From an uncultured Peptococcaceae bacterium (GTDB taxonomy: Bacteria; Bacillota; Peptococcia; Peptococcales; Peptococcaceae), in the NCBI GenBank assembly GCA_958451915.1, contig CAUDRX010000001.1:31381-95380 (forward strand): a stretch of DNA of 64,000 nucleotides, written 5' to 3'. The notes beneath the pieces are model-generated. The model worked only from the letters and a program-made list of their open reading frames with translations, did no database searches and was not told the origin of the DNA. Positions within the stretch are counted from its first letter, which is position 1. Each line of letters starts with the position of its first letter. Both the position numbers and the translations under genes were made by a program. Of the stretch, positions 1 to 32,486 are shown in pieces.

Positions 1-1
1 G

Positions 2-1879
2 AATCTGCCGGTGCTGACGGCTAACAAGCAGGAGCCTGCACCTACGTTAGCAAGGGTACCAAAGCAGAGTCAGGGCGAACTGACCATCACTGGTCAACCA
101 AGCGAACCGATCTATGAAACACAGGAGCCATTCACATTAACAGTGAGCGGTGGTCTGCCCAATGGTGCAGTGACTTGGTCGACGAGCGATGAGAACATTG
201 CCACTGTTGACGAGCGCGGAACGGTTACCATCCATGGTGTGGGTCTGGTGACCATTACCGCCACGAAAGCGGGTGACGACACCTACGCCGACGCCATAGC
301 AACGTATTCTTTCACCGTGCTCGGAACGCCAATCAGCGAAGTCACGATTTCCAATCTGAAGGCGCCGGTTTCTGGCGAAGATCCTGTAACGTATGTGGAG
401 GTGCCTGAGGACGCCAATTATCATGGATTGGTGGCTGCTGATCTTGGCGACAGCACAGCGACCGTGGAGTGGCGCGACAGCGACTGGAAACTGGTACATG
501 AAGGTGATAACTTTATGCAAAACGAAGTCTATACGGTGGTTGTTCCTCTTACAGCCAATGACTACTATTCTTTTGCAGAGGAGATTCAGGTCAATACACC
601 TGGCTTTACGCCTGGAACGGTGACACAGTTTTCCACGGCACCTGATCCAAATTTAAAAAATACCATCAGAGTTTCTATTGTCTTTAAACCAACGGCACAC
701 ATGCACAGTTATCAGAATGAAGAGACCTGGACCACAGAGCCGCTGCATCATTGGCACGCCTGCACAGAAAATGACTGTCCGCTGATGCCGTCGGAAATGC
801 CAGGCTACGCAGCGCACACGGGCAATCCGGGGGATAAATGCAGCGTTTGCGGCGCTGACATCGGGTATGAAATCACCTTTGATGCCAATGGCGGACAATG
901 TGACACAACAAGCATGTACACCGACACAGCTGGCAAGCTAAGCACGCTGCCAACACCAAAGCGCGGCGGATACACCTTCGATGGCTGGTTCACGGAGCAA
1001 AGCGGTGGCACGGCGGTCACCGCAGAGACAGTGTACGACAAAAACACCACGCTGTACGCGCACTGGACGGCTATCCCTTCTGGCAGCAGCAGTTATATGA
1101 TCGACGTCATTGAGTCGACGCATGGCACGGTGACCGCATCGCCAAAATGGGCGAGCAGCGGGCGCATCGTGACTTTGACGGTGACACCGGACGAAGGGTA
1201 CGAACTTGCCGCGCTGACCGTTACGGATAAGAACGGCAATGACGTGGCACTCACCAATAATGGCGACGGCACGTACACGTTCAAAATGCCAGCGTCGAAG
1301 GTGACGGTAAAGGCGACGTTCACAAAAGACATCGTGACCTTGCCGTTCATCGATGTTCACCCAGGCGATTGGTTCTACGACCCAGTTTGCTTTGTGTACG
1401 AGAACGGCCTGATGACCGGCACCTCGGCCACCACCTTCGAGCCAAACACCAGCCTCAGCCGCGCCATGCTCGTGGCTGTGCTCCATCGCCTGGAAGGCAG
1501 CCCGCAAGCCAGCGCCGGTGATTTCACCGACGTAGCCGAGGGCGACTGGTACGCCCAGGCTGTGAACTGGGCAGCATCGGTGGGCGTGGTCAACGGCTTT
1601 GACGATGGCACCTTCCAGCCAAACGCCGCTATCACCCGCGAACAAATGGCCGCCATCCTGCGCAATTACGCAGCTTACAAAGGCCTTGACGTGAGCGCCA
1701 GCGGCAGCCTCAGCACCTTCACCGACGCCGCAAGCGTCAGCGACTGGGCGAAAGAGTCTGTTGAATGGGCAGTTGGCAGTGGCTTGCTTGGCGGCTATGA
1801 GGACAGCACCTTGCAGCCACAGGGCACCACAACCAGAGCAGAAGTAGCCAGCGTGCTGCAGCGTTATTTGGAAAAATAA
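2..1879 (+). CDS. cell-surface protein, 5'-partial (Big_2 Ig-like domain, Listeria/Bacteroides-type repeat, three C-terminal SLH domains)
   Basis: The frame is open back to position 2, so the N-terminus lies outside the window. Big_2-like TVTIHGVGLVTITATKAGDDTYA; Flg_new-type repeat GYTFDGWFTEQSGGTAVTAETVYDKNTTLYAHW; SLH repeats FIDVHPGDWFYDPV.., FTDVAEGDWYAQAV.., FTDAASVSDWAKESV.. Confidence 0.85.
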   Translation, partial: NLPVLTANKQEPAPTLARVPKQSQGELTITGQPSEPIYETQEPFTLTVSGGLPNGAVTWSTSDENIATVDERGTVTIHGVGLVTITATKAGDDTYADAIATYSFTVLGTPISEVTISNLKAPVSGEDPVTYVEVPEDANYHGLVAADLGDSTATVEWRDSDWKLVHEGDNFMQNEVYTVVVPLTANDYYSFAEEIQVNTPGFTPGTVTQFSTAPDPNLKNTIRVSIVFKPTAHMHSYQNEETWTTEPLHHWHACTENDCPLMPSEMPGYAAHTGNPGDKCSVCGADIGYEITFDANGGQCDTTSMYTDTAGKLSTLPTPKRGGYTFDGWFTEQSGGTAVTAETVYDKNTTLYAHWTAIPSGSSSYMIDVIESTHGTVTASPKWASSGRIVTLTVTPDEGYELAALTVTDKNGNDVALTNNGDGTYTFKMPASKVTVKATFTKDIVTLPFIDVHPGDWFYDPVCFVYENGLMTGTSATTFEPNTSLSRAMLVAVLHRLEGSPQASAGDFTDVAEGDWYAQAVNWAASVGVVNGFDDGTFQPNAAITREQMAAILRNYAAYKGLDVSASGSLSTFTDAASVSDWAKESVEWAVGSGLLGGYEDSTLQPQGTTTRAEVASVLQRYLEK

Positions 1880-1888
1880 TGACATAAA

Positions 1889-1917
1889 GAAACGACAGCT
1901 CCAGCAGCTGTCGTTTC
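1889..1917 (+). terminator. intrinsic terminator hairpin after the SLH protein gene
   Basis: GAAACGACAGCT-ccagc-AGCTGTCGTTTC, a perfect 12-bp stem 10 nt after the stop; the T-run is weak. Confidence 0.6.
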
Positions 1918-1972
1918 ACATTACAGATAAACTCTATCCTAGCATTTTGCTAAGATAGAGTTTTCTTTGTAA

Positions 1973-2012
1973 AAAACGACACGCCGTCCTGTGCAGGATG
2001 GCGTGTCGTTTT
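1973..2012. terminator. bidirectional intrinsic terminator
   Basis: AAAAAACGACACGCCGTCCTG-tgc-AGGATGGCGTGTCGTTTTTT, with an A-run on one side and a T-run on the other; it abuts the stop of the minus-strand gene at 2013. Confidence 0.8.
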
Positions 2013-2417
2013 TTATTCGTCTGAAAGGTCGTCGCTGCCCTGGGAAGCGGCTTCCAGACATTGGGCAACAGCGTCGCGCAGGGCGTCGGCGGTCTCAGTG
2101 GCACCGCTGACGCCGTCTACCTCGACACTCTGTGCATCGAGCATGGCGGGGATCATCTGCTCGATGGCAGCGCCGCCGCGGTCTGGGGTTTCGTTGGGCG
2201 CATCTGCGTCAATGCTGGCGAGACGGCCGCTTTGGATGGTCACGCTTACGGCGAGATCACCGCCGTAAGCGGCTGATGATGCCTGATAGGTGCCATCGCT
2301 CCACTGGCCGGCGGGTGCAATGTCATAATTTTGGGCGGGCGCGCTGTCCTGACTGGCGCAGGCTGTGCAGAAGAGGAGCAGGAGCGTGGTGAGGGGGAGA
2401 AGGAAGGTGCGTTTCAT
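2013..2417 (-). CDS. FMN-binding-domain lipoprotein
   Basis: Lipoprotein signal MKRTFLLPLTTLLLLFCTAC; FMN_bind-type motif VDGVSGATETAD; 134 aa. Confidence 0.8.
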   Translation of the reverse strand: MKRTFLLPLTTLLLLFCTACASQDSAPAQNYDIAPAGQWSDGTYQASSAAYGGDLAVSVTIQSGRLASIDADAPNETPDRGGAAIEQMIPAMLDAQSVEVDGVSGATETADALRDAVAQCLEAASQGSDDLSDE

Positions 2418-2559
2418 ATTAAATTGAACTCCTTTCGCGTGTGTTCACTTTATTGTACCCTCCCGGGCGCAGTCTGGCAACGCCTGATTGACGCAGTTGA
2501 ACAGAGATGGTAAGCTTTTAGGAGAAGTTTATTCACAGATACGAGGGAAGGTGGAACGA

Positions 2560-3390
2560 TTGGATCAACAGGACATCACGACGGTGATCAGGACGCGCCG
2601 TAGCGTGCGTACCTACGACGGTCAGCCACTCTCGCCGTCAGACCGCACCTATGCGGAGGCGCTGATCGCGGCGGCGGATAATCCTTTTGGGGCATCGGTG
2701 CGGCTCACGCTCCTGGAAGCAGGAGAGACGCGGGAGAAGCTCAGCACGATGGGTGTGGTGCGGGACGCGCGTGCCTACATCGGTGCTTCCTGCGCCTGGC
2801 AGCCAATGGCCCCGCTGGCACTGGGCTATCAGTTGGAGAGCGTGGTGCTGGGACTGGCGGCCCAGGGACTGGATTCGGTCTGGCTGGGCGGCACTTTTAA
2901 GCGCGATGGCTTCGCCCGGGCCATGGGCGTGCGGCGGGATGACTGGTTTCCGGTGGTGCTGCCGTTCGGCCATGCGGCACGCCGCCCATCGACAGCGGAA
3001 AAGATGATGCGCCGCATGACAAAGGCCGATGAGCGCGAGCTCTGGCGCGACCTTTTCACCGAGGACGGCTTCCAGGTGCAGCTCTCAGAGGCAGCGGCCG
3101 GCGACTATGCGCTGCCGCTGGAGATGCTGCGTTTGGCGCCGTCATCTGCGAACGGCCAGCCTTGGCGCGTGGTCAGACGCGGCAATGTGTTCTATTTCTA
3201 CGAGACCCATAAAGGCAGCCTTGGCGAGGCTCAGGTACGCATGAAGCACATCGACCTCGGCATTGGCATCTGTCATTTTCATCTGACGGCGCAAACACTG
3301 GGTCTGCGCGGTCGTTTTGTTCATCTGCCGCTGGACGGGGTGCGGATCCCGGAAGATACGTTCTATCACGTGTCCTGGGTGGCAGAGTGA
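2560..3390 (+). CDS. nitroreductase family protein
   Basis: RTRRSVRTYDG motif and nitroreductase-like C-terminal half. The track start at 2488 coincides with a TTGACG -35 box, so I prefer in-frame TTG 2560 (or GTG 2551) after GAGGGAAGG. The start is uncertain. Confidence 0.75.
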   Translation: MDQQDITTVIRTRRSVRTYDGQPLSPSDRTYAEALIAAADNPFGASVRLTLLEAGETREKLSTMGVVRDARAYIGASCAWQPMAPLALGYQLESVVLGLAAQGLDSVWLGGTFKRDGFARAMGVRRDDWFPVVLPFGHAARRPSTAEKMMRRMTKADERELWRDLFTEDGFQVQLSEAAAGDYALPLEMLRLAPSSANGQPWRVVRRGNVFYFYETHKGSLGEAQVRMKHIDLGIGICHFHLTAQTLGLRGRFVHLPLDGVRIPEDTFYHVSWVAE

Positions 3391-3407
3391 GAAGAGGAGG
3401 ATCATTC

Positions 3408-4169
3408 ATGAATGTTAAAGAGATCATATTCAGCCCCACCGGCGGGACCCGCGCCGTGGCGGACATGTTGGGGCGAGCTTTGGACCCGGAGCCTTTCCGC
3501 ATCGATTTGACGGGTTTCTATGCCGACCATGAGGAAGTCGCGCTTTCGGCAGAGGACGTTGCCATCATCGCGATGCCTTGCTATTATGGGCGCGTGCCTG
3601 TGCTCGCCGCTGAGCGCCTGGGCGCGGTGGCAGGGCATGGTGCCCGTGCTGTGGTCGTCGCTGTATACGGCAACCGTGCCTATGATGATGAGCTCGTCGA
3701 GCTTGCCGATCTGGCAGCGGCGAGCGGGTTCCAGGTCGTAGCTGGTGTGGCTGCAGTAGCCGAGCATTCTATCGTGCGTCAGTATGCACAAGGGCGTCCG
3801 GATGTTTCTGATGACACTGTGCTGCGCGGCTTTGCCGCCGAGATCGCCGCCAAGCTTGCGCGCGGCGAGACCAGCCAGCCGGATCTGCCGGGCCAGCGCC
3901 CATACAAAGAACTGCCGCCAGGCGGCAACGTGCCGCAGGCGGACGCTTCCTGCATCCATTGCGGCAAATGTGCTGATTTCTGCCCGAATGGCGCTATCGA
4001 TCCCGATCACATAGAGACCGCCGATGCATCGCGCTGCATCTCCTGCATGTGCTGCGTCAGCGTCTGTCCGGTGCAGGTCCGCGACATTGCGCCGGAAGCC
4101 CGCGCCGCCATCACCGGGCACCTCAGAGACGTGTGCAGCGTGCGCAAAGAACCAGAGCTCTATCTCTGA
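3408..4169 (+). CDS. flavodoxin-fold plus 2x[4Fe-4S] ferredoxin-domain protein (EFR1-like)
   Basis: GAGGAGGA precedes ATG 3408. N-terminus MNVKEIIFSPTGGTRAVADMLG; CIHCGKCADFCP and CISCMCCVSVCP cluster motifs. Confidence 0.8.
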   Translation: MNVKEIIFSPTGGTRAVADMLGRALDPEPFRIDLTGFYADHEEVALSAEDVAIIAMPCYYGRVPVLAAERLGAVAGHGARAVVVAVYGNRAYDDELVELADLAAASGFQVVAGVAAVAEHSIVRQYAQGRPDVSDDTVLRGFAAEIAAKLARGETSQPDLPGQRPYKELPPGGNVPQADASCIHCGKCADFCPNGAIDPDHIETADASRCISCMCCVSVCPVQVRDIAPEARAAITGHLRDVCSVRKEPELYL

Positions 4170-21061: not shown

Positions 21062-22456
21062 ATGACAAGAGATTTAGATTTTTCACGGATCCACCGGTTC
21101 ATCTTTGATGACCTTCACCTGCTGCTCGACGTTAACAGCGGCTCTGTCCATGTCATCGACGAGACCGCCTGGGCCTTCCTTGATGCCCTCGAACAAGGCC
21201 AGAGCTGGGAGGATGCCATCCGTACCACTGCCGCCGTCTATGGCGAAGAGGATGCCCGCGATGTCGCTGAAGGCGTGAGTGAACTCATAGAGGAAGGGAT
21301 GCTCTTTTCTGACATTGATTTCAGTGAGTTTACCCCACACACTGAACCTATCGTCAAAGCCATGTGCCTGCACATGGCCCACGACTGCAACCTGCGCTGC
21401 GGCTACTGCTTCGCCGACAGCGGCGCCTACGGCGGCGGCCGCTCCCTGATGAGCCTGGAGGTCGCCAAAAAAGCCATCGACTTCCTCATGGAAGCTTCCA
21501 GGCACCGCACCCACGTTGAAGTAGACCTCTTCGGCGGTGAGCCGCTCCTCAACCTCGATGTCTGCAAGGCCGTCGTCGAATATGGCCACCAGCGTGCCGC
21601 TGCGCTCGGCAAAGTGCTCAAAGTCACCCTCACCACCAACGGCGTCCTTCTTGATGACGCTGTCGGCAAATGGGTCAACGACGAGCACATGGACGCCGTT
21701 CTCTCCCTTGACGGCCGCAAAGAGATCCACGACAACATGCGCCGTTTCGTCGGCGGGCAGCCAAGCTACCAGACCTGCGTGGACCACTTCCAGAAGTTTG
21801 TCGCCACCCGCGGCCAGCAGTGGTACTACGTGCGTGGTACATACACCCACTACAACCCGGATTTTGCCGCCGACGTCATCCACATGGCCGATGACCTCGG
21901 CTTTAAGGAGATCAGCATGGAGCCCGTCGTTGCACCGGCCGACATGCCATATGCCCTCACCGAGGACGACAAGCCGATCATCCTTGAAAATTACAACATC
22001 CTCGCCCGCCATTACCTCCAGCGTTGGCGCGAGGGCAAGGGCTACAATTTCTTCCATTTCAATGTCGACTTCGCCGGCGGCCCATGCCTGCCAAAGCGCC
22101 TCTCCGGCTGCGGCAGCGGTCACGACTACCTCGCCGTCAGCCCGGAAGGGGACCTCTATCCTTGCCATCAGTTCGTCGGCGAGGAAGATTACAAGATGGG
22201 CACCGTTTTCACCGGCATCGAACGTCCGGAGATCGCTGAACGCTTCCAGAAAGCCAACGTCCTCACCAAGCCAACCTGCATGGACTGCTGGGCGCGCTTT
22301 TTCTGCAGCGGCGGCTGCCACGCCAACAACATCCGCTACGGTGGTTCCATCAATGAGCCTTACGCTTATGGCTGTGACCTCCAGAAGAAACGCATCGAAG
22401 CGGCCATCTATGTGCAGACCGTGAAGCTTTTAGAGAGCGAAGGGAGCGAAGACTGA
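21062..22456 (+). CDS. radical SAM/SPASM peptide maturase, SCIFF-maturase (CteB) type
   Basis: CLHMAHDCNLRCGYCFA (CxxxCxxC), an N-terminal RRE-like region LLLDVNSGSVHVIDE, and SPASM Cys motifs CGSGHDYLAVSPEGDLYPCHQF and CWARFFCSGGCHANN. Near end-to-end resemblance to C. thermocellum CteB as I recall it. Confidence 0.8.
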   Translation: MTRDLDFSRIHRFIFDDLHLLLDVNSGSVHVIDETAWAFLDALEQGQSWEDAIRTTAAVYGEEDARDVAEGVSELIEEGMLFSDIDFSEFTPHTEPIVKAMCLHMAHDCNLRCGYCFADSGAYGGGRSLMSLEVAKKAIDFLMEASRHRTHVEVDLFGGEPLLNLDVCKAVVEYGHQRAAALGKVLKVTLTTNGVLLDDAVGKWVNDEHMDAVLSLDGRKEIHDNMRRFVGGQPSYQTCVDHFQKFVATRGQQWYYVRGTYTHYNPDFAADVIHMADDLGFKEISMEPVVAPADMPYALTEDDKPIILENYNILARHYLQRWREGKGYNFFHFNVDFAGGPCLPKRLSGCGSGHDYLAVSPEGDLYPCHQFVGEEDYKMGTVFTGIERPEIAERFQKANVLTKPTCMDCWARFFCSGGCHANNIRYGGSINEPYAYGCDLQKKRIEAAIYVQTVKLLESEGSED

Positions 22457-23341: not shown

Positions 23342-24277
23342 ATGAACGATCTCTTTTCTCAGATCACCGGCGTTGCCGAGGTGCGTTTTGACGAGCCCCT
23401 CGCCCGTCACACCACCTTTGGGATCGGCGGTCCTGCCGATGTCATGGTCTTTCCGGAGACCCCAGCGGCCCTCGCTGAAGTCGTGCGTACCGCCCGCGAG
23501 AACGGCCTCGACTGGCTCGTGCTCGGGCGTGGCAGCAACATGCTCGTCGCCGACAGCGGCATCCGTGGTGTCGTTATTGCCACCGAGCGCCTCCAGACCC
23601 TCCGCGTCGAAGCGAGCCGCGTCACCGCAAGCTGCGGCTGGTCCCTCATCAACGTCAGCAAAGCCACAGCCGAGCTCGGTCTCAGCGGTCTTGAATTTGC
23701 CAGCGGCATTCCCGGCAGCATCGGCGGTGCAGCCTACATGAACGCCGGCGCCTATGATGGTGAGATGAAGGACGTCATCACGAGCGTCACCGTTCTGGAC
23801 GAGAACGGCGCTGTCCGGGAGATCCCGGCCAGCGAGATGCGTTTCAGCTATCGCCACAGCCGTCTCAAGGACGAACCCCTCATCTGTCTCGCTGTGACCA
23901 TGCAGCTCGCGTTCGCCGACAAGCGCGAGATCCTCGACAAGATCCGCGACCTCACCGAGCGCCGCACCAGCCGCCAGCCGCTTGAGCTTGCAAGTGCCGG
24001 CTCCACCTTCAAGCGGCCCGCCGGTCACTACGCCGGCCCTCTCATCATCGAGGCCGGCCTCCAGGGCCACCAGATCGGCGGCGCTCAGGTCTCGACCAAG
24101 CACGCCGGCTTCGTCGTCAACACCGGCGGCGCCACCGCCGATGACGTCATCCGGCTCATCCACCACATCCAGCAGACCGTCCTCGACAAGGACCACGTCC
24201 GCCTCGAGACCGAAGTCCGCTTCATCGGCGACTGGGCCGATCACCCCCTCTACCCAGCGATCATGAAAGCCGAATAA
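23342..24277 (+). CDS. murB: UDP-N-acetylenolpyruvoylglucosamine reductase
   Basis: LARHTTFGIGGPADVMVFP, GRGSNMLVAD and AGSTFKRP motifs. Confidence 0.93.
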   Translation: MNDLFSQITGVAEVRFDEPLARHTTFGIGGPADVMVFPETPAALAEVVRTARENGLDWLVLGRGSNMLVADSGIRGVVIATERLQTLRVEASRVTASCGWSLINVSKATAELGLSGLEFASGIPGSIGGAAYMNAGAYDGEMKDVITSVTVLDENGAVREIPASEMRFSYRHSRLKDEPLICLAVTMQLAFADKREILDKIRDLTERRTSRQPLELASAGSTFKRPAGHYAGPLIIEAGLQGHQIGGAQVSTKHAGFVVNTGGATADDVIRLIHHIQQTVLDKDHVRLETEVRFIGDWADHPLYPAIMKAE

Positions 24278-24288
24278 GGAAACAAATA

Positions 24289-24334
24289 AACCTCTCTGAC
24301 CGTCCCAAATGGGATGGATGCAGAGAGGTTTTTG
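24289..24334 (+). terminator. intrinsic terminator after murB
   Basis: AACCTCTCTG..CAGAGAGGTTTTT with an inner helix CGTCCCA-aat-GGGATGG. Confidence 0.75.
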
Positions 24335-24368
24335 CGTTTGTGGGAGGATGAAAAGTATTGTATATCTC

Positions 24369-24397
24369 TTGAAATACGCCCTTTATCACTATATAAT
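24369..24397 (+). promoter_or_regulatory. sigma-70-type promoter of the regulator-kinase operon
   Basis: TTGAAA (24369-24374), 17 nt, TATAAT (24392-24397). Confidence 0.6.
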
Positions 24398-24455
24398 GAT
24401 ATCAAACACAAACCTTTGATGGCGCATCAGTGTAAATAAAAAGGGGGGGATCGCC

Positions 24456-25181
24456 ATGAAGATCGCGATCTGCGATGATGAGATCCTATATTGCGAGGCC
24501 ATGGAGACGATGCTCCATGCTCACGGCATCGAGCCGGATGTCTATCATTCCGGCAAAGACCTGCTTCATGCCTGCCTGGAGCAAGGGCGGCGCTATGACG
24601 GCGTCTTTCTCGACATGGAGATGGACGGACTGAACGGCTTTGAGACGGCAAATGCCCTGCATGCCCATGACCCACATATGCAGATCGTCTTTGTCACCAG
24701 CCACGAAAAATACATGATCGATAGTTTTCGTTGTGATCCGCTGCGTTTCATCGTCAAGAACAGGGACGGTGCACTTGTGCCAGAGGCACGTTTTGAAGAA
24801 GCCCTCGAGGCTATTGGCGCCGTCACCGCCGTGAAGCGCCAGGCCATCCACCTGACGGTCGATCGCGGCGATGAAGTCCTGCTCTACGACGATGAGATCG
24901 CCTATTGCGAGAGCAGAGGTCACAACATTCTATTTTACTGCACCGACGGGCAGATGTATAGCTGGCGTGGTACCATGGCCCAGCTGCTCAACAAGCTCCC
25001 GCCAGACTATTTCGTGCAATGCCACCGATCTTTCGTCGTAAATCTTGCCCATGTATGTAAGGTCAGCGAGAAAAATGGTGAGATTTCTCTTGCCACTGGG
25101 GTAGTACCGATAGGGCCGTCGTTTAAGGCGGATTTTCTTGTTGCTCGGATTCGTTTTATGAAAGAGAGATTGCATGTATGA
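24456..25181 (+). CDS. LytTR-family response regulator (AgrA-like)
   Basis: REC domain MKIAICDDE..VFLDMEMDGLNGFE and a C-terminal LytTR domain (YFVQCHRSFVVNLAHV). Confidence 0.9.
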   Translation: MKIAICDDEILYCEAMETMLHAHGIEPDVYHSGKDLLHACLEQGRRYDGVFLDMEMDGLNGFETANALHAHDPHMQIVFVTSHEKYMIDSFRCDPLRFIVKNRDGALVPEARFEEALEAIGAVTAVKRQAIHLTVDRGDEVLLYDDEIAYCESRGHNILFYCTDGQMYSWRGTMAQLLNKLPPDYFVQCHRSFVVNLAHVCKVSEKNGEISLATGVVPIGPSFKADFLVARIRFMKERLHV

Positions 25182-26467
25182 GTGCATATGAATTTGCTGA
25201 TCTTATCACACCGCTCGTTGAGGCGGTAATGTTCTTTATGTTGTTCGAAGCCTTTCTATCGCGGCGGAAGAAGCTGAAAACCTGGCACTATATCGTGGGC
25301 ATGATTGCGCTGGCTGGGATGATCAGTATTTGTAATAGAGTGTTCAGTTATACCTTTTTGAATATTCTTGGCTTGGTCCTATCAGCTTTTCTTCTGTCTT
25401 TCCTGTATCGAGGGGAATTCGGGTTTCGCTTGATCGCCAGTGTTTCTGGTATCCTGATCAGTGGCGTTTTAGAGATCTTTGTGATGTATCTGATCACGGT
25501 CATATTTGACATATCTGTTAGCGAAGCGATTTATGATCAAGAATATCGCTTACTGGGGATCATAGGGTCAAAAATAAGTGGATTGGCCTGTTGTAATGCC
25601 ATCCGGATAAAGAGTTCTGTGAAAAAGCTGTCTCAAAGCAACACCTATTGGCTTCTATTTTTCTTGCTGTTCTTGTCAAGCTTACTAACAATATCGTTGC
25701 TCTTTATTATGAGTTACGAGATCAATGATGAACGTTATAATAGCATTGCGGTACTTTGTGCGATGGGGCTGCTTTTCAGCACTTTCTTTGCGCTCTATAT
25801 CTATGAAAGGATCGTAAAACAAAGCGAAGCGATACGTAGTCAGGAACAGTATGAACAGCATTTAAGATCCCAGCTCAAGCATCTGGACGACATCATTGCC
25901 GGACAAAATGAATTGCGCCGGTTCAAGCATGATCTTTCCAATCAGCTGGCGGTCGTTCGTGGTTACTTTGAGCGTCAGGACAATGAAGCCGGAGAGCGTT
26001 ATCTGGATGAGTTGGATCAACGCTTTTTAAAAGGGCATGCTGTCGTCAATACAGGAAATACGGCTTTGGATGCGATCATCAGCACCAAGCAGGCATTGGC
26101 TGAGAGCAAAGGCATTGTTTTTCAGATGACCATCCAGATCGCCGAGCATTTTCCGATCGAGCCCGTTGATGCCTGCATGATCTTTGGCAATGCGCTCGAC
26201 AATGCCATCGAAGCCTGTGAACGGCTGGACGGCGGAGAGAAGCATATCACCCTCACCCTCATCCAGCAGGACGAGACCCTCTTCTGCAAGATCGTCAACA
26301 GCGCCCCGCCCGGCCAGCATCACGACCTTCAGACCAGCAAGCGTGACAAAGACGCGCATGGCCTGGGCCTGTTGAACATTAAGGACGCCCTGGCGCGCTA
26401 TGACAGTGGCGCTGTGATAGAATGGGAAAACGGTATTTTCTCATTGTCTTTTCTGATCGATCTATAA
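25178..26467 (+). CDS. AgrC-like sensor histidine kinase (multi-TM sensor plus GHKL ATPase)
   Basis: 6-7 N-terminal TM helices; H-box RFKHDLSNQLAVV; N-box FGNALDNAIEA; G-box HGLGLLN. 4-nt overlap with the regulator gene. Confidence 0.88.
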   Translation: MSAYEFADLITPLVEAVMFFMLFEAFLSRRKKLKTWHYIVGMIALAGMISICNRVFSYTFLNILGLVLSAFLLSFLYRGEFGFRLIASVSGILISGVLEIFVMYLITVIFDISVSEAIYDQEYRLLGIIGSKISGLACCNAIRIKSSVKKLSQSNTYWLLFFLLFLSSLLTISLLFIMSYEINDERYNSIAVLCAMGLLFSTFFALYIYERIVKQSEAIRSQEQYEQHLRSQLKHLDDIIAGQNELRRFKHDLSNQLAVVRGYFERQDNEAGERYLDELDQRFLKGHAVVNTGNTALDAIISTKQALAESKGIVFQMTIQIAEHFPIEPVDACMIFGNALDNAIEACERLDGGEKHITLTLIQQDETLFCKIVNSAPPGQHHDLQTSKRDKDAHGLGLLNIKDALARYDSGAVIEWENGIFSLSFLIDL

Positions 26468-26551
26468 CAAACCAGACAGTGTACGGAACATCGTATTATC
26501 ATTGCGATGATCTGTATGCTGTTTTTTTTTGTAAAAATTAAATAAAAGATT

Positions 26552-26616
26552 ATTCGTGTCTCTAACTCGGCTGTTCGTGCCACTTTTCCAGGATCGGCCC
26601 TTTTTTGTGCTATGAT
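26552..26616 (+). promoter_or_regulatory. LytTR-type operator (two direct repeats 21 bp apart) plus extended -10; agrBD promoter
   Basis: ATTCGTGTCTCTAACTCGGCTGTTCGTGCCACTTTTCC, with TTCGTGTC at 26553 and TTCGTGCC at 26574; 25 nt further on is TGcTATGAT (26608-26616). Confidence 0.7.
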
Positions 26617-26640
26617 CTTTGAAAAGAGGAGGTGAAGAAG

Positions 26641-27225
26641 ATGAAGAAAGTGATCGATCATTTTGAGCGACGCATGATCGCGGGCAATGTGATCTCACAG
26701 AATGAAACGGCCGTTGTCCGCTATGGCTTGGAAGTGTTCTTCATCTCGTTTCTTGAACTGGCCGCAATCTTTGTGCTTGCTGCTTTTGTTGGGAATCTAG
26801 CGAGCACTGTATGTTTTTTCTTAGCATTTATCCCACTCAGATTGGTTGCCGGTGGTTATCATGCATCAACACGCCTGAGATGTTTCATCCTCTCATTGGC
26901 TGTATACGGAGTGTTCACTGTGATGATGCAGATGATCCCGACATCATGGTATATAGGAGTGGTTTATAGCTGCCTGATCGTGACAGGTTATATCATATGG
27001 CGATTTTCACCGAGCATTCATCATAACCGTCGATCTATCGATTATGACCGTCAGTTTTATCGTAGGATCAGTTTAAAGATCTGGTTTTTTGAATGCAGCA
27101 TAATAGTCGCTTTGCAGGTATTTTTGCCAATATCTGCTGTCGGGGTGGCAATGGCATTAGGCATGTTCTCTGAAGCATTGGCGCTCCTGGTGGTAGTTTG
27201 GGAGAAATATATATCACCGGTATGA
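26641..27225 (+). CDS. agrB: AgrB-family autoinducer-processing membrane peptidase
   Basis: AGGAGG lies 8 nt before ATG 26641. IPLRLVAGGYHASTRLRCFILS has the His/Cys pair at i/i+7; 4-5 TM helices. Confidence 0.85.
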   Translation: MKKVIDHFERRMIAGNVISQNETAVVRYGLEVFFISFLELAAIFVLAAFVGNLASTVCFFLAFIPLRLVAGGYHASTRLRCFILSLAVYGVFTVMMQMIPTSWYIGVVYSCLIVTGYIIWRFSPSIHHNRRSIDYDRQFYRRISLKIWFFECSIIVALQVFLPISAVGVAMALGMFSEALALLVVVWEKYISPV

Positions 27226-27248
27226 AAAACAGAAGGGAGGAAAGAAAA

Positions 27249-27425
27249 ATGAAAAAATGGTATGAAGCGATCATGTCTCGATATTATATGGCATGGAAGT
27301 GGATAGCACTAATGTTTGCGGCTTTGGCAGTAAATACTGTATGTACCTTGCCATACTATGAACCGGAGCAGCCATCAGAGCTGGCTGGTCTCAAACGATT
27401 TGGATATTTCCATAAAAGGGGATAA
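27249..27425 (+). CDS. agrD: AgrD-like cyclic-lactone autoinducer peptide precursor (58 aa)
   Basis: GGGAGGAAAG precedes ATG 27249. Sequence MKKWYEAIMSRYYMAWKWIALMFAALAVNTVCTLPYYEPEQPSELAGLKRFGYFHKRG: amphipathic leader, single core Cys and an acidic P-x-E-L tail. Lies immediately 3' of agrB. Confidence 0.75.
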   Translation: MKKWYEAIMSRYYMAWKWIALMFAALAVNTVCTLPYYEPEQPSELAGLKRFGYFHKRG

Positions 27426-27484
27426 AAACAGGAAAAAAACTGCACCTGTTTATGGGAGGCAGCGTGATGAGGTCATGTTGAGAA

Positions 27485-27549
27485 ATTCGTGCCTCTAACT
27501 CGACTGTCCGTGCCACTTTCCGAAAAAAGTGGGATTTTGATGATATACT
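27485..27549 (+). promoter_or_regulatory. second copy of the LytTR-type operator plus extended -10 (effector promoter)
   Basis: ATTCGTGCCTCTAACTCGACTGTCCGTGCCACTTTCC, with TTCGTGCC at 27486 and TCCGTGCC at 27507; the same 25-nt spacing to TGaTATACT (27541-27549). Confidence 0.7.
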
Positions 27550-27818
27550 GTACGAAAACCGGGAAAACTATTGAAGATCAATTAAAGGCAGTGGCGACGA
27601 CCATCTTGCTCACAATGGCGGTGCCGCGCTCAGCATATGACTTGTTGAGTGCGTTCTGCATACCGTATTGTTGCGATATGATCCAGAAGGGAGGTGGACG
27701 CTAAAGTTCATCCAGCCTGTTGCCCGTCGCAGTTGTGATCACCGAAGTTTTTTTGAACTCGTACCTGCAAGTTGAGTGTACAAAGCAGATACACTATAAA
27801 TCGTCTGCAAATCTAAAC

Positions 27819-28766
27819 ATGAAAAGACGATTAACATTATTAACATTGGTGCTTTTTTCTGTCAGCACATTGATGTCCATGCCGGGACTCGCGGCGGAAT
27901 ATGATGGGTACGTAGATGCCGCCGGTAATCAGATCACTCCAGAGATCGAACCGCTTACAGATGAAGAGATCCAGAGAAATGCTGACTATGACAATATGGT
28001 TGAGACGGTTCGCACTGCTTACGAAGCATATCTCGATGGAGAGATCACCATCGATCAGTTGCAACAGATTGAAGATGCAAGTTATTTCTCAGTTTACCCA
28101 GAGGAAAAAGATAATCCGCTGGCTTCCATGAAGACAAACCCAGAGCGCAAAGAAATGGTTGAAGCGATGAAAGCCGATCGACAGGATTCGTCTCAAAAGG
28201 TCAGCTTTGAGATCCAGCCGTTCAATCTTGGGGATGGGACCGCGAAATATCTGCCAATGCCTTATGAAATGCAGGCAAACACTTGGTATTGTGGACCAGC
28301 GACGGCGGTCAATATCGTAAATGGTTACAATGGATACAGCCGCATGACCCAAAGTCAGGCAGCCAGTCTCTTAGGGACGACTTCTTCCAGTGGGACAAAT
28401 TTCAGCAGTAACTGGTACAATGTATTGAATACATCTACCATGGGGAAAACTTACACACGTGCCCAGGGGTATTCTGATTGGGCTGGCGATCTGGCGAACA
28501 AATGCATTGGCACGATCTGGAATGGGCGCGGGGTTGCGCTGAATGTCGTTATGACGCCGTATACCACTTACTTGCCAGGATACAGTGCTGCGTCTGGTAA
28601 TGTATACCACTACGTTGCCGCATATGGCTTTGAAAGCTATGATCCTTCACGAAGAAAGATCTGTTATATCGACCCATATGCTGAGTATTTGGGCATTTCT
28701 GGTGCTCAGAAAGTAACCTTCCAGCAAATGGCTTTAGCAACACAGACGCACGGGATCATCTATTGA
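27819..28766 (+). CDS. secreted papain-fold cysteine peptidase (C39-like), probable zymogen
   Basis: Signal peptide MKRRLTLLTLVLFSVSTLMSMPGLAAE; acidic pro-region of about 150 aa; nucleophile context NTWYCGPATAVNIV and His context NVYHYVAAYGF. No clear Shine-Dalgarno sequence precedes ATG 27819. Confidence 0.7.
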   Translation: MKRRLTLLTLVLFSVSTLMSMPGLAAEYDGYVDAAGNQITPEIEPLTDEEIQRNADYDNMVETVRTAYEAYLDGEITIDQLQQIEDASYFSVYPEEKDNPLASMKTNPERKEMVEAMKADRQDSSQKVSFEIQPFNLGDGTAKYLPMPYEMQANTWYCGPATAVNIVNGYNGYSRMTQSQAASLLGTTSSSGTNFSSNWYNVLNTSTMGKTYTRAQGYSDWAGDLANKCIGTIWNGRGVALNVVMTPYTTYLPGYSAASGNVYHYVAAYGFESYDPSRRKICYIDPYAEYLGISGAQKVTFQQMALATQTHGIIY

Positions 28767-28795
28767 TCTGAGTTGTCAATGACACGATAAATTAA

Positions 28796-28832
28796 GCAGA
28801 AAACACAGCACCGCTCATGCTGTGTTTTCTGC
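28796..28832 (+). other. strong hairpin between the peptidase gene and the next gene (weak terminator or processing site)
   Basis: GCAGAAAACACAGCA-ccgctca-TGCTGTGTTTTCTGC, a 15-bp stem with no trailing T-run, followed directly by AGGAGG. Confidence 0.5.
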
Positions 28833-28853
28833 GTTCGTAAAGGAGGCGTGGTT

Positions 28854-30458
28854 ATGAAAACAACGTTACGACATTTGGGTCTGTCCGGTGGGCTGGCGAT
28901 TTTGGTGATGCTGGCTTCACCGTGCATGGCAGATGCAGCCGTGCTGAATCTCAACGGACAGGATATCGATGCAGAGGCATCCGGAGACATGGTGATCCGG
29001 GATGGTGTGACCATGGTATCCGAGGATATTTTGCGAGATGAAATGTATCTGACATTGGAAAAGGACAAAAAAAGTTTCAAACTTGAGAATGTGTACAAAG
29101 ATTTCGTTCTTGAAGGAGCAGTCGATTCCGATACATTGTCTCTGAATGGCGAAGAAAAGAAGATGTCGGTAGCGGCACAATCTGTAGATGGAAAACTGTT
29201 TGTGCCGTTGCGTCCGGTCATTGAATTGTTCGGTGATATTGGCTGGGTGGGTGCTGATCAGACGGTATATGCGCGCTACGATTATAATGATCAGGTGGAG
29301 ATCCCACTTGTGCAAGCCTCTGATACCCCGATCACGTATGAAGTGCCGCTGAATTCCAGTGTTGCAGCGGAGAACGGTGAGACGCCGATCCGTGTGACAG
29401 ATGATGGAACGCTCATTGAAAAACGCGATGCGAATAACAATCTCATTGCTGTGCAGATCGGGGACAAACCATTGATCCAGCCGCAAAATGAAGGCAACAT
29501 CCTGCGTTGGGGCAGCTATGAAGTGGAAGACGATTATCTGTATTGGATGGAGCAACCAGATCCTTCTCAGGAGATCACCGACGATCAACAATGGTATCTC
29601 TACATCCAAGAACGCAAAGATGGTGCAAAGCCAGAATGCATCGATCATGGTTCTTACAATGAAGTACTGAGTGTATCGCCGACCGGCGGGATGCTCAACA
29701 ATTGCGATTTTAAAAATGGAAACATCATCTGGCTGCGTGGCGACAAAAGTAGTGGAAAATTTGAAGCGCGTCTTTATCAGCGTGATACCGGAGAAATAAC
29801 AACGCTGGACAGCCTGCCGTTTGATGGGCGTGTCTTTACGCAAGTGACCATGGAAGTGTCCCTTGGTGAACACGATGCCTTTTGGACGCGTGCATATTTC
29901 ATGGAATCCATGCGCGAATACGGCACCATGAAGCGCATGCACCTGGAAACCGGAGAGATCGAAGAATTTTCACAAGGCTATAATCTGCTCAATCCATTTG
30001 TGATCGGAGACTATTTGGTCATCCGAGTGAAGCCGGAAGGGAACAATTTCGTGCCGGATCCAGATAAATTGGGCACCTATATCAGTGGCGAACTTTGGGT
30101 CTATGATCTTAAAAAAGATGAATGGTCGTTCAAAGTAGACAATGATCTGGCCATGATCGGTGAAAAAAATGTCATCAGTACGCCAGTGATATTGGATGAT
30201 ACACATATCACCGTTCGAACTGACAGCTCCTATGGATACAGCATGCCGATCATTGACCTGGCAAACGGCACGATGCATGCCACAGCCAATGAAAACAACG
30301 AACCGCTCATGTTCCTGCCATATGGTCTCGTGGATGAAACAACGACCGTTGGCGATATGCAGTCGATGGGCAAAGATGGTTCCTGTATGGCAACGTTCCA
30401 AACCAGGATCGATGGTACGATCACGCCAAGCTATGCGCCAGTGTATTTTGAATGGTAG
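28854..30458 (+). CDS. secreted protein: N-terminal stalk (copper-amine-oxidase-N-like) domain plus beta-propeller-like region
   Basis: AGGAGG lies 7 nt before ATG 28854. Signal peptide; VIRDGVTMVSEDILRDEMYL and VDGKLFVPLRPVIELFGDIGW. The remainder shows repetitive beta-strand-rich sequence. Confidence 0.7.
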   Translation: MKTTLRHLGLSGGLAILVMLASPCMADAAVLNLNGQDIDAEASGDMVIRDGVTMVSEDILRDEMYLTLEKDKKSFKLENVYKDFVLEGAVDSDTLSLNGEEKKMSVAAQSVDGKLFVPLRPVIELFGDIGWVGADQTVYARYDYNDQVEIPLVQASDTPITYEVPLNSSVAAENGETPIRVTDDGTLIEKRDANNNLIAVQIGDKPLIQPQNEGNILRWGSYEVEDDYLYWMEQPDPSQEITDDQQWYLYIQERKDGAKPECIDHGSYNEVLSVSPTGGMLNNCDFKNGNIIWLRGDKSSGKFEARLYQRDTGEITTLDSLPFDGRVFTQVTMEVSLGEHDAFWTRAYFMESMREYGTMKRMHLETGEIEEFSQGYNLLNPFVIGDYLVIRVKPEGNNFVPDPDKLGTYISGELWVYDLKKDEWSFKVDNDLAMIGEKNVISTPVILDDTHITVRTDSSYGYSMPIIDLANGTMHATANENNEPLMFLPYGLVDETTTVGDMQSMGKDGSCMATFQTRIDGTITPSYAPVYFEW

Positions 30459-30482
30459 GGTTACGACTGAGACAACACGCCC

Positions 30483-30510
30483 AAGCGCGGCATTTCTGCC
30501 GCGCTTTTTC
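30483..30510 (+). terminator. intrinsic terminator
   Basis: AAGCGCGGCA-tttc-TGCCGCGCTT followed by TTTC. Confidence 0.8.
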
Positions 30511-30542
30511 TCATTCGCCGCAAACCTTCACGATGTCTTTAC

Positions 30543-30578
30543 AAACCGCCTTGCTTGGGCGGTTTTTCTATTTTTTTT
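30543..30578 (+). terminator. second tandem terminator
   Basis: AAACCGCC-ttgcttg-GGCGGTTTTT followed by a further T8 run. Confidence 0.65.
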
Positions 30579-30629
30579 CGGGTGTGCGTGTTACAATAGG
30601 GACAATGTCATTTTGAAAGGAAGGATCGT

Positions 30630-32486
30630 ATGAAAGTACGACTGCCATATAAACGCTGCGGGCTGGGGGTGAATGTGCTCCTGGCGCTGGCGCTGGCGTG
30701 CGTGGTGACGCTGGCGGTGGTGATCCTGCAGCCGAACGACGTGCGCGACACGCTGGCGGTGTTCACGGCGCGGCCGATCGCGGCGGTGTGGAACGTGGTG
30801 CCGGTGTTCCTCTTGATCCTGGCAGGGATGTTCCTCTTTAACAACGTTTTCCTGTCCACGGCGCTGGTGGGGGCGGTGTGCCTGGTCTTTTCGCTGATCA
30901 ACCGGCTGAAGATCGAGATCCGCGATGAGCCTTTGCAGTTCACGGACATCGCCCTCTGGCGCGAAGGCAGGGAAGCGGCGAAGAGCTACCACATCGACTG
31001 GCCTGTGGCGCTGGTCGCGGGCGTGGTGCTGGTGGTCGTGGTCTTCCTTGTGCTGGCGGCGTGCCTGGGCATGAAAAAACAGCGCTGGTTTGTGCGCGCA
31101 GGCGGCGTGGTGCTGCCTGTGGTGGTGCTGGCGCTCCTGGTGAACACGGCGATCGCCGACCGCCATGTCTACGACAACATCGAGATCTCCAACAACGCCT
31201 ACATGCCGACGATCTATAACGAGCGCGGCTACATCTACAGTTTCTTCCACTATATCACGACCTACAAGGTCGAAGAGCCGGCCGGCTACGACAAGGCTGA
31301 AGCGGCGGCCTGGGACGAGGCGCAGCCGGTAGCGGGCGAGGCAGCGCCGGTGAACGTGGTCTTCATCCAGAACGAGGCCTTTTCGGACATCAGCGACTGG
31401 GAGGGCTTCGCCTTTGCGGAAGGGGATGACCCGCTGGCGAATTTCCACGCTCTGGCTGAAGAACCCCATGCCCTGAGCGGGCACATCGTTGTGCCGCAGT
31501 TTGCCGGCGGTACGGCCAACACCGAGTTCGACGTGCTCACAGGGATGCAGACGATCCATGCGGCGTCCTCGGCTTTCCGTACAGTACACCACGATGTGGG
31601 TTCGATCTTCCGTGTCTTTAACGCCGACGACTACGCGACCTCGATGTTCCACCCGGGCGAGGCCTGGTTCTACAACCGCGAGAACGTCTATCGCTGGTTC
31701 GGTTCGGAAGAGAACCTCTTCAAGGAGGACCTGCCGGGCCTGGCGGAAGCGGGCGGCTGGGTCCTCGACGATGCTCTGGCAGACCGCATCATCGAGGCGA
31801 TCGACACGGAGACGGCGGACGGCGGGCTGCTCTTCAATGAGAGCGTGACCATCCAGAACCACATGTCCTACACCGCTGATAAATATGGTGTTGGTGTGAC
31901 TTTTGAAGACGTGCCGCTCTCGGTGGAGATGAGCGAAGCCGACCAGGAGATGCTCGACGTTTATATGAAAGGTGTGCGTGATGCCGATGCCATGATCGCG
32001 AAGCTCACAGACACCTACCGCACGAGCGACACGCCGGTGGTCTTTGTCTTCTATGGTGACCATCTGCCATACCTGGGGGACAATCAGAGCGTCTATAAGG
32101 CCCTGGGCAAGGACTTCATCGCCACGGGCACAACGACCGCCGAGAGCCTGGAAGCCTTTGAGACGCCGTATCTCATCTGGGCCAACGACGCTGCAGCAGC
32201 GGCCATCGACTGGGACACTGCAGAGATGCAGCTCCCAGAGACCATGAGCGCCTGCTATCTCGGCGCCAGCGTCCTCGAGCTTGTGGGGCGCGACGGCGAA
32301 GAAGCGTGGTTCAATTATCTCTGCCAGCTGCGCGATCAGTACCCGGTCATGACTGCCGACGCCGTCATGACCGCCGATGGCCAGCTCAGTGCCATCGAGA
32401 GCCTGAGCGCCGAGGCGAAGGCGCCGCTTGAAAAATACTGGCAATGGGCCTATTACCGTCTTGAAGATGACCGCCCGTCCGACTGA
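30630..32486 (+). CDS. LTA synthase (LtaS) family sulfatase-domain membrane protein
   Basis: Five N-terminal TM helices and an extracellular alkaline-phosphatase-superfamily domain (VVFIQNEAFSD, QFAGGTANTEFDVLTGM, FVFYGDHLPYLG). Confidence 0.85.
   Translation: MKVRLPYKRCGLGVNVLLALALACVVTLAVVILQPNDVRDTLAVFTARPIAAVWNVVPVFLLILAGMFLFNNVFLSTALVGAVCLVFSLINRLKIEIRDEPLQFTDIALWREGREAAKSYHIDWPVALVAGVVLVVVVFLVLAACLGMKKQRWFVRAGGVVLPVVVLALLVNTAIADRHVYDNIEISNNAYMPTIYNERGYIYSFFHYITTYKVEEPAGYDKAEAAAWDEAQPVAGEAAPVNVVFIQNEAFSDISDWEGFAFAEGDDPLANFHALAEEPHALSGHIVVPQFAGGTANTEFDVLTGMQTIHAASSAFRTVHHDVGSIFRVFNADDYATSMFHPGEAWFYNRENVYRWFGSEENLFKEDLPGLAEAGGWVLDDALADRIIEAIDTETADGGLLFNESVTIQNHMSYTADKYGVGVTFEDVPLSVEMSEADQEMLDVYMKGVRDADAMIAKLTDTYRTSDTPVVFVFYGDHLPYLGDNQSVYKALGKDFIATGTTTAESLEAFETPYLIWANDAAAAAIDWDTAEMQLPETMSACYLGASVLELVGRDGEEAWFNYLCQLRDQYPVMTADAVMTADGQLSAIESLSAEAKAPLEKYWQWAYYRLEDDRPSD

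Follow-up and report, generated by a model that had tools for sequence, protein, structure and literature searches.

How an agr-type locus of an uncultured bacterium might couple production of its peptide signal to production of a secreted peptidase is the question raised by a 64,000-nucleotide (nt) stretch of Peptococcaceae DNA (contig CAUDRX010000001.1, positions 31,381 to 95,380; the whole of this 64-kb stretch is called the window below). Two near-identical repeat modules stand in this locus, one in front of the signal genes agrB and agrD (copy 1, belonging to the promoter P_agrB) and one between agrD and the peptidase gene (copy 2, belonging to what we call the downstream promoter). Judged by sequence comparison, the two modules are likely to be operator-promoter units of the neighbouring response regulator, a LytTR-type (AgrA-like) protein that belongs to an agr-type peptide quorum-sensing system. 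All features described are on the forward (+) strand unless stated otherwise.

A repeat search of the window returned a two-copy direct repeat of 35 nt, at 26552-26586 and 27485-27519, with 32 of 35 positions identical (91%) and a start-to-start distance of 933; the near-identity of the two stretches, with the coordinates and sequences given for them in an initial annotation of this DNA, was thus confirmed. When the 35-mer was searched in degenerate form on both strands with up to three mismatches, these two places were the only matches, in keeping with the earlier statement that the window holds no other copy, and none of 100 dinucleotide shuffles produced a match. Both copies read RTTYGTGYC-N12-GTYYGTGYC, i.e., two 9-bp direct half-sites with starts 21 bp apart, and RTTYGTGYC was found twice per copy at the spacing previously proposed. 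At P_agrB the distal half-site is ATTCGTGTC (26552-26560, about -71 to -63) and the proximal one GTTCGTGCC (26573-26581, about -50 to -42), positions that assume a transcription start 7 nt past the -10 box; at the downstream promoter they are ATTCGTGCC (27485-27493) and GTCCGTGCC (27506-27514), and at both promoters the proximal half-site is followed directly by ACTTT. The half-site pair TYCGTGYC-N13-TYCGTGYC was likewise confined to these two places in the window. With up to two mismatches allowed, at least two matches to this pair were also obtained in 14 of 100 shuffles; significance therefore attaches to the 35-nt identity and not to the half-site geometry by itself. A looser half-site scan (up to four mismatches, spacing of 20 to 22) gave 37 matches versus 21 to 39 in shuffles, and among these 37 an in-register -10 box followed the two modules only. 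A single half-site on the minus strand (TTTCGTGCCAACTTTTTC, 51040-51023), which resembles the proximal site with its ACTTT tail, is intergenic with no gene on that strand and was judged probably to be a chance match; TGcAATATT lies 31 nt further on.

Each module is followed by an extended -10 box, TGcTATGAT at P_agrB (26608-26616; hexamer TATGAT at 26611-26616) and TGaTATACT at the downstream promoter (27541-27549; hexamer TATACT at 27544-27549). The two hexamers are, like the repeats, 933 nt apart, so that the register between operator and promoter is identical in both copies, with 29 nt from the proximal 9-mer to the -10 hexamer. The equal distance to a TGn-extended -10 box had been put at 25 nt in the initial annotation, which counted from the end of the 35-mer, and this is the same as 29 nt from the proximal 9-mer. 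A poor -35 element had also been described: at 17-bp spacing the -35 position of P_agrB is occupied by CCAGGA (26588-26593; one of six matches to TTGACA) and that of the downstream promoter by CGAAAA (27521-27526; three of six). The repeats of the modules are direct and non-palindromic, and their register with the -10 boxes is fixed.

The register was compared across 18 promoters from 12 metagenomic loci (AgrB 36 to 82% identical), aligned from the proximal repeat. The set included distant loci (L008, L012 and L066 to L071; AgrB 36 to 49%), a locus in another genomic setting (L065; AgrB 64%) and the promoter of an orphan AgrCA pair in L008; the 18 promoters are partly non-independent and represent about eight clearly distinct systems. 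A gapless arrangement of 9-mer, 29 nt and -10 hexamer was found in 18/18 promoters, including all 13 P_agrB promoters compared, and TG stood two to three bases before the hexamer in every one. The hexamer was of the TAnnnT type in 17/18, the remaining one being GATACT. The distal repeat lay 21 bp upstream of the proximal one, or 20 bp upstream in L070 and in the orphan pair of L008. Half-site sequence varied between systems (GTTCGTGCC, GCTTGTGCC, GTTTGTGCA, GTTTACGTT and AATTACGAC) while the geometry stayed constant. Drifting half-sites in a fixed geometry are to be expected where each operator co-evolves with its own regulator, and we regard this pattern as strong support for a functional operator-promoter at copy 1. 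A hairpin at 27513-27532, between the operator of copy 2 and its -10 box, was dismissed as it is not kept in the related locus L001.

The arrangement of genes around the modules is consistent with this role. Upstream lie an AgrA-like response regulator gene (agrA, 24456-25181; Pfam Response_reg 2e-15, LytTR 4.8e-16), the product of which aligns with full-length ComE (4cbv, E 1.3e-5), and an AgrC-type sensor histidine kinase gene (agrC, 25178-26467; Pfam HATPase_c_5 [PF14501, GHKL] 1.5e-21; a weak NCBIfam AgrC match at 2.7e-17). The regulator gene is preceded by a sigma-70-like promoter, TTGAAA-17-TATAAT (24369-24397; 11/12 match to consensus), and pattern scans of the window found no half-site pair or operator module upstream of agrA. 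After agrC comes an intrinsic terminator (26473-26530; stem of about 22 bp followed by 9 T; dG of -29.4 kcal/mol, z of -6.8), with compensatory changes in 2 of its 22 pairs across five alleles. Given this strong terminator between agrC and copy 1, agrA-agrC would form a terminated unit of its own and agrBD would need a promoter within 26531-26640, and copy 1 sits exactly in that interval. Behind it follow agrB, encoding the autoinducer-processing membrane peptidase (26641-27225; Pfam AgrB [PF04647] 2.1e-32), and agrD, encoding the autoinducing peptide precursor (27249-27425; NCBIfam TIGR04223, 23.3 bits against a cut-off of 19), for which allele comparison predicts a ring C-T-L-P-Y followed by YEPEQPSEL. 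AgrB, AgrD, an AgrC-type kinase and an AgrA-type regulator, i.e., the set expected of an agr-type cyclic-peptide system, were thus all found, in the order agrA-agrC, terminator, promoter, agrB-agrD rather than as a single autoinduced agrBDCA operon.

Binding sites of LytTR regulators consist of 9-bp repeats with a 12-bp spacer, the exact spacing being essential (PMC2766830), and AgrA binds two direct repeats directly ahead of promoters whose core elements are suboptimal (PMC4227749). In repeats of the Clostridioides difficile RgaR/VirR type, critical G residues are at -51 and -72, i.e., 21 bp apart (PMC10602386). Every feature of the LytTR operator class that can be computed from sequence was present here, namely the repeat geometry, the position before a core promoter and a linked LytTR regulator. 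The initial annotation's reading of the repeats as LytTR/AgrA-type sites is supported, as a LytTR regulator and an AgrC-type kinase adjoin the modules and the geometry fits that reported (PMC2766830).

The following circuit may be proposed. Basal expression of agrBD would yield a thiolactone peptide with the ring CTLPY, which AgrC would sense, in turn phosphorylating the regulator; a dimer of the phosphorylated regulator would then occupy the half-site pair and recruit RNA polymerase to the -35-less, TGn-extended promoters. Through copy 1 this would give positive feedback on signal production (agrBD) only and not on sensor or regulator, and through copy 2 it would make production of the secreted C39-like peptidase, and perhaps of the secreted protein encoded next, dependent on cell density. 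The description of the modules as "P2/P3-like" holds for the logic of one feedback promoter plus one output promoter; it does not hold for the layout, which is tandem and co-directional with the modules flanking agrBD, nor did the Rfam search detect an RNAIII-like family at the locus. Likewise, the "two-promoter regulon" stands as two promoters within the window, which is the extent to which the term applies.

The gene presumed to be under control of copy 2, referred to below as the cargo gene, encodes a secreted Peptidase_C39_2-like protein with a signal peptide (27822-28766; Pfam PF13529 1.2e-9; 90 to 98% identical in syntenic loci), which had no significant match among Protein Data Bank sequences. 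The next gene encodes a secreted Cu_amine_oxidN1-domain protein, also with a signal peptide (28854-30458; Pfam PF07833 1e-9), and is possibly co-transcribed with the peptidase gene. Between the two lies a hairpin (28796-28832; perfect 15-bp stem, 7-nt loop), which may be a partial terminator or a processing site. The whole agr-plus-cargo block is flanked by a radical-SAM/SPASM gene (with PDT and MurB genes) on one side and a sulfatase gene on the other (21062-22456 and 30630-32486, respectively).

Homologues of the AgrB protein (E ≤1e-10) numbered 31, of which 30 came from metagenome sources only; the sole other one was a protein of a Provencibacterium metagenome-assembled genome (MAG), 22% identical. 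By MurB, the closest named relatives were Peptococcaceae bacterium MAGs (77% identity). Seven loci (L001 to L007) are syntenic with the window, with radical-SAM, PDT and MurB genes upstream and the sulfatase gene downstream, and their flanks are 92 to 100% identical to it. The cassette between these flanks (about 25331-27660), comprising the AgrC sensor part, AgrB, AgrD and the second intergenic region, is 34 to 80% identical between syntenic loci, and the N-terminal sensor part of AgrC is hypervariable (42 to 60% nt identity between alleles over 25331-25780). Predicted peptide rings across alleles are CTLPY, CILPY and CGFPY. From these comparisons, the divergence of the cassette among L001 to L007 and L065 is readable as agr allelic, pherotype-like variation, and its mosaic identity profiles point to recombination. 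A hypervariable segment of agrB, agrD and the sensor part of agrC is known from the agr alleles of Staphylococcus aureus. Both modules are found at the same places in L001 to L003 and L007, despite the divergence of agrB, agrD and the surrounding intergenic DNA.

Among the compared loci, the downstream copy was restricted to the clade of the window. In the distant loci the gene after agrD either was close by or had no such site within about 5 kb, and it always encoded a secreted protein or lipoprotein, of unrelated families; cargo in these loci is probably co-transcribed with agrBD from a single operator, and the operator of the window's clade would be one that was duplicated in front of the cargo. 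In L008, upstream of two Cu_amine_oxidN1-domain genes, there is in addition a second, orphan AgrA-AgrC pair without agrBD (positions 1-3676). This pair carries a direct repeat of its own, two copies of CAATTACGAC at a spacing of 20 bp, located 29 nt ahead of TGgTATCAT. The two operator copies of one locus differ by 3 (window), 1 (L001) and 1 (L007) nt, whereas equivalent copies of different loci differ by 4 to 11 nt. That copies within a locus are more alike than their equivalents between loci suggests that both are kept matched, and we read this as concerted evolution of the two operators via gene conversion or joint selection. The P_agrB operator of L004 is a mosaic, its distal half being of the L007 type and its proximal half of the L001 type, indicating recombination breakpoints inside the operator.

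At the downstream promoter of L004, L005, L006 and L065 a single half-site is found: exactly one 21-nt unit is gone and the 29-nt register is intact. The promoter stretches concerned are 6819-6860 in L004 and 1860-1900 in L065, equivalent to 27485-27514 in the window. The downstream promoter of L065 precedes an Amidase_6 gene and not a peptidase gene, and with a different secreted cargo behind it, the promoter is to be seen as part of the agr cassette and not of the peptidase gene.

Public collections were scanned with the pattern RTTYGTGYC-N12-GTYYGTGYCAYTT. Contigs of one genome per species (185,579 species genomes) gave 16 matches, about the chance expectation, in unrelated organisms or in coding DNA, and JGI metagenomes gave 34 matching stretches, several of which were 21-nt tandem arrays. 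No agr context was evident at the 16 plus 34 matches, open reading frames (ORFs) having been inspected for L015 only, where the match lies within a murE-like gene. The arrays, with a 21-nt period and units like GTTTGTGCCACTTTC (L045, 8448-8999; L049, 4213-4659; L054, 115-190), are iteron-like, occur in unrelated contexts and turned up through the pattern match only. A motif dispersed independently of these genes, named in the initial annotation as an outcome that would speak against its proposal, was not what emerged, with two copies in the window and collection matches at chance level or unrelated.

Several observations weigh against both modules being activator-dependent operators of the adjacent regulator. 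Judging from the four alleles with a single half-site, the full pair is not indispensable at the downstream promoter. The regulators of L001 and L004 are identical, yet their P_agrB operators are mismatched at 6 of 30 positions; operator variants are thus not tightly matched to regulator variants, and the idea that the variation of one tracks that of the other was ruled out on this ground. Promoters with a TGn-extended -10 box can work without an activator, so that activator dependence of the two promoters is presumptive. The AgrA box of S. aureus is ACAGTTAAG, to which TTYGTGYC is unrelated, a different specificity within the same class, and specificity is therefore not transferable from a characterised protein. 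It is also worth noting that no clear terminator was found between agrD and copy 2, and the peptidase gene may in part be transcribed by read-through from P_agrB.

The missing terminator and the alleles that have lost exactly one 21-bp unit would suit an arrangement in which only copy 1 works as an operator and copy 2 is a duplicate in decay, transcription of the peptidase gene coming from agrBD read-through or from a constitutive promoter closer to it. A candidate for the latter is TTGAGT-17-TATAAA at about 27773-27801, and the use of one operator with short agrD-cargo gaps in the distant systems would also fit. We nevertheless consider decay of copy 2 unlikely, since in the window, L001 to L003 and L007 the half-site pair, its 21-bp spacing, the TGn -10 box at exactly 29 nt and the ACTT are all preserved while the DNA around these elements is only 34 to 68% conserved, since the single-site alleles hold the proximal site in unchanged register, and since the two copies are near-identical within each locus.

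The pairing of identical regulators with differing operator variants, the capacity of extended -10 promoters for activator-independent activity, and a half-site that matches no characterised LytTR box could instead mean that the repeats are bound by another factor, or that the regulator is a repressor or modulator of constitutive extended -10 promoters. Such an explanation appears very unlikely, as direct repeats 21 bp apart and centred near -46 and -67 represent the LytTR activator arrangement, Pfam searches found no DNA-binding protein encoded in the locus other than the LytTR regulator, and the architecture accompanies LytTR, AgrC, AgrB and AgrD genes in 12/12 loci, including the orphan AgrCA pair with a repeat of its own. 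Exceedingly improbable, in our view, is a 35-mer without any promoter role, be it a dispersed repeat, the end of a mobile element or a scar of recombination at the cassette borders. The locus is indeed a recombining mosaic cassette in which the L004 operator is itself a mosaic; however, the 64 kb contain no more than two copies, the matches from the collection scans (ORFs inspected for L015 only) were unrelated or at chance level, the variable region (about 25331-27660) has both copies in its interior and not at its borders, and the repeats are direct, non-palindromic and held in register with -10 boxes. The reading of both modules as operator-promoter units of the adjacent regulator is thus the one we favour.

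The downstream promoter would produce a transcript with a leader of about 270 nt before the peptidase gene (predicted at 27555-27821). The leader stretch 27561-27740 is 90 to 98% conserved between the window and L007, the peptidase genes of which are about 87% identical. An 84-nt indel in the leader is present in the window and L007 and absent in L001 to L006, and L007 is without a 48-nt stretch holding the possible TTGAGT-17-TATAAA promoter. A strong Shine-Dalgarno-like sequence, GGGAGGTG, at about 27690 has no start codon after it. Fold z-scores were -3.3 for the window and -0.6 for L001, and thus gave no consistent leader structure signal common to the two; a search of Rfam over 24000-31000 with E up to 1 found no family for repeat or leader, and no RNAIII-like family. 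Small ORFs in the leader (71 amino acids [aa], 27489-27704; a 54-aa version in L007) were rejected, because their start precedes the predicted transcription start and 84-nt and 1-nt indels shift the frame between alleles. At 27815-27830 the window is missing, relative to L001, L004 and L007, 17 nt (GGGATGAGAATAATGAAAA) between two ATGAAAAG repeats, which leaves the ATG of the peptidase gene at 27822 without an obvious Shine-Dalgarno sequence. That the leader is an RNAIII-like trans-acting effector, and that the second promoter therefore makes more than peptidase mRNA, is very unlikely; if true, it would be a genuine P2/P3 analogue in an uncultured lineage of the class Clostridia.

By analogy of layout, the closest counterpart of the locus is the Enterococcus fsr/gelE system rather than the divergent P2/P3 pair of S. 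aureus. In Enterococcus faecalis, fsrA is constitutive, and the sites bound by phosphorylated FsrA lie before fsrB and before the neighbouring protease operon gelE-sprE (PMC5454873). The likeness extends to an upstream regulator with its own promoter outside the loop, to regulated promoters on an AgrB-type gene and an adjacent secreted protease (PMC5454873), and to the tandem, co-directional order of these two promoters. The differences are that fsrC, the kinase gene, belongs to the autoinduced fsrBDC operon, while the kinase gene of the window is co-transcribed with the regulator gene; that fsr has a metalloprotease and a serine protease as cargo, in contrast to a C39-like cysteine peptidase; that the half-site sequence is not the same; and that E. 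faecalis has a third FsrA site elsewhere (ef1097), while our view is of the 64-kb window. With the agr system of S. aureus the locus would share a LytTR dimer on two direct repeats and promoters with a defective core, one for autoinduction and one for output (PMC4227749). However, P2 and P3 are divergent from one shared intergenic region, whereas the promoters here are co-directional and 933 bp apart; P2 drives all four genes agrBDCA, and copy 1 would act on agrBD only; P3 yields RNAIII, for which the Rfam search gave no counterpart family here; and the core defect of the S. aureus promoters is an over-long spacer, in contrast to a missing -35 compensated by TGn.

Two imperfect direct repeats and a LytTR-type regulator are also found in the VirR/RgaR systems (pfoA and vrr of Clostridium perfringens; agrB1D1 and spoZ of C. 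difficile), where the repeat positions of -51/-72 are almost those estimated here and one target is the agrBD operon (PMC10602386, PMC8043184). The box sequence is not the same, and the loop of C. difficile and C. perfringens is reported to be non-autoregulatory, with regulator and kinase unlinked to agrBD (PMC10602386), whereas here both are its neighbours and the operator stands before agrBD itself, so that a closed loop is predicted. The streptococcal SilA/BlpR/ComE systems have direct repeats of 9 to 10 bp with an 11- to 12-bp spacer of essential exact length, and their site is duplicated before several operons of one locus (PMC2766830). They differ in employing linear double-glycine peptides exported by ABC transporters, and not AgrB-processed cyclic peptides, and in having bacteriocin or competence genes as targets.

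The design proposed here is a standard one for such systems and leaves the understanding of them unchanged; as a further example in an uncultured bacterium it is of modest interest only. A recent C. difficile study reached the conclusion that Agr systems of clostridia generally lack autoregulation (PMC10602386), and against that conclusion a predicted closed loop on signal production only has some interest. The natural alleles with one or two half-sites offer a ready comparison of promoter strength. For the agr system of a lineage represented only by metagenomes, the analysis provides a concrete regulatory map of operator, spacing, predicted transcription starts and predicted peptide ring, and the rule "half-site, 29 nt, TGn, -10" could serve regulon annotation for this agr family in MAGs.

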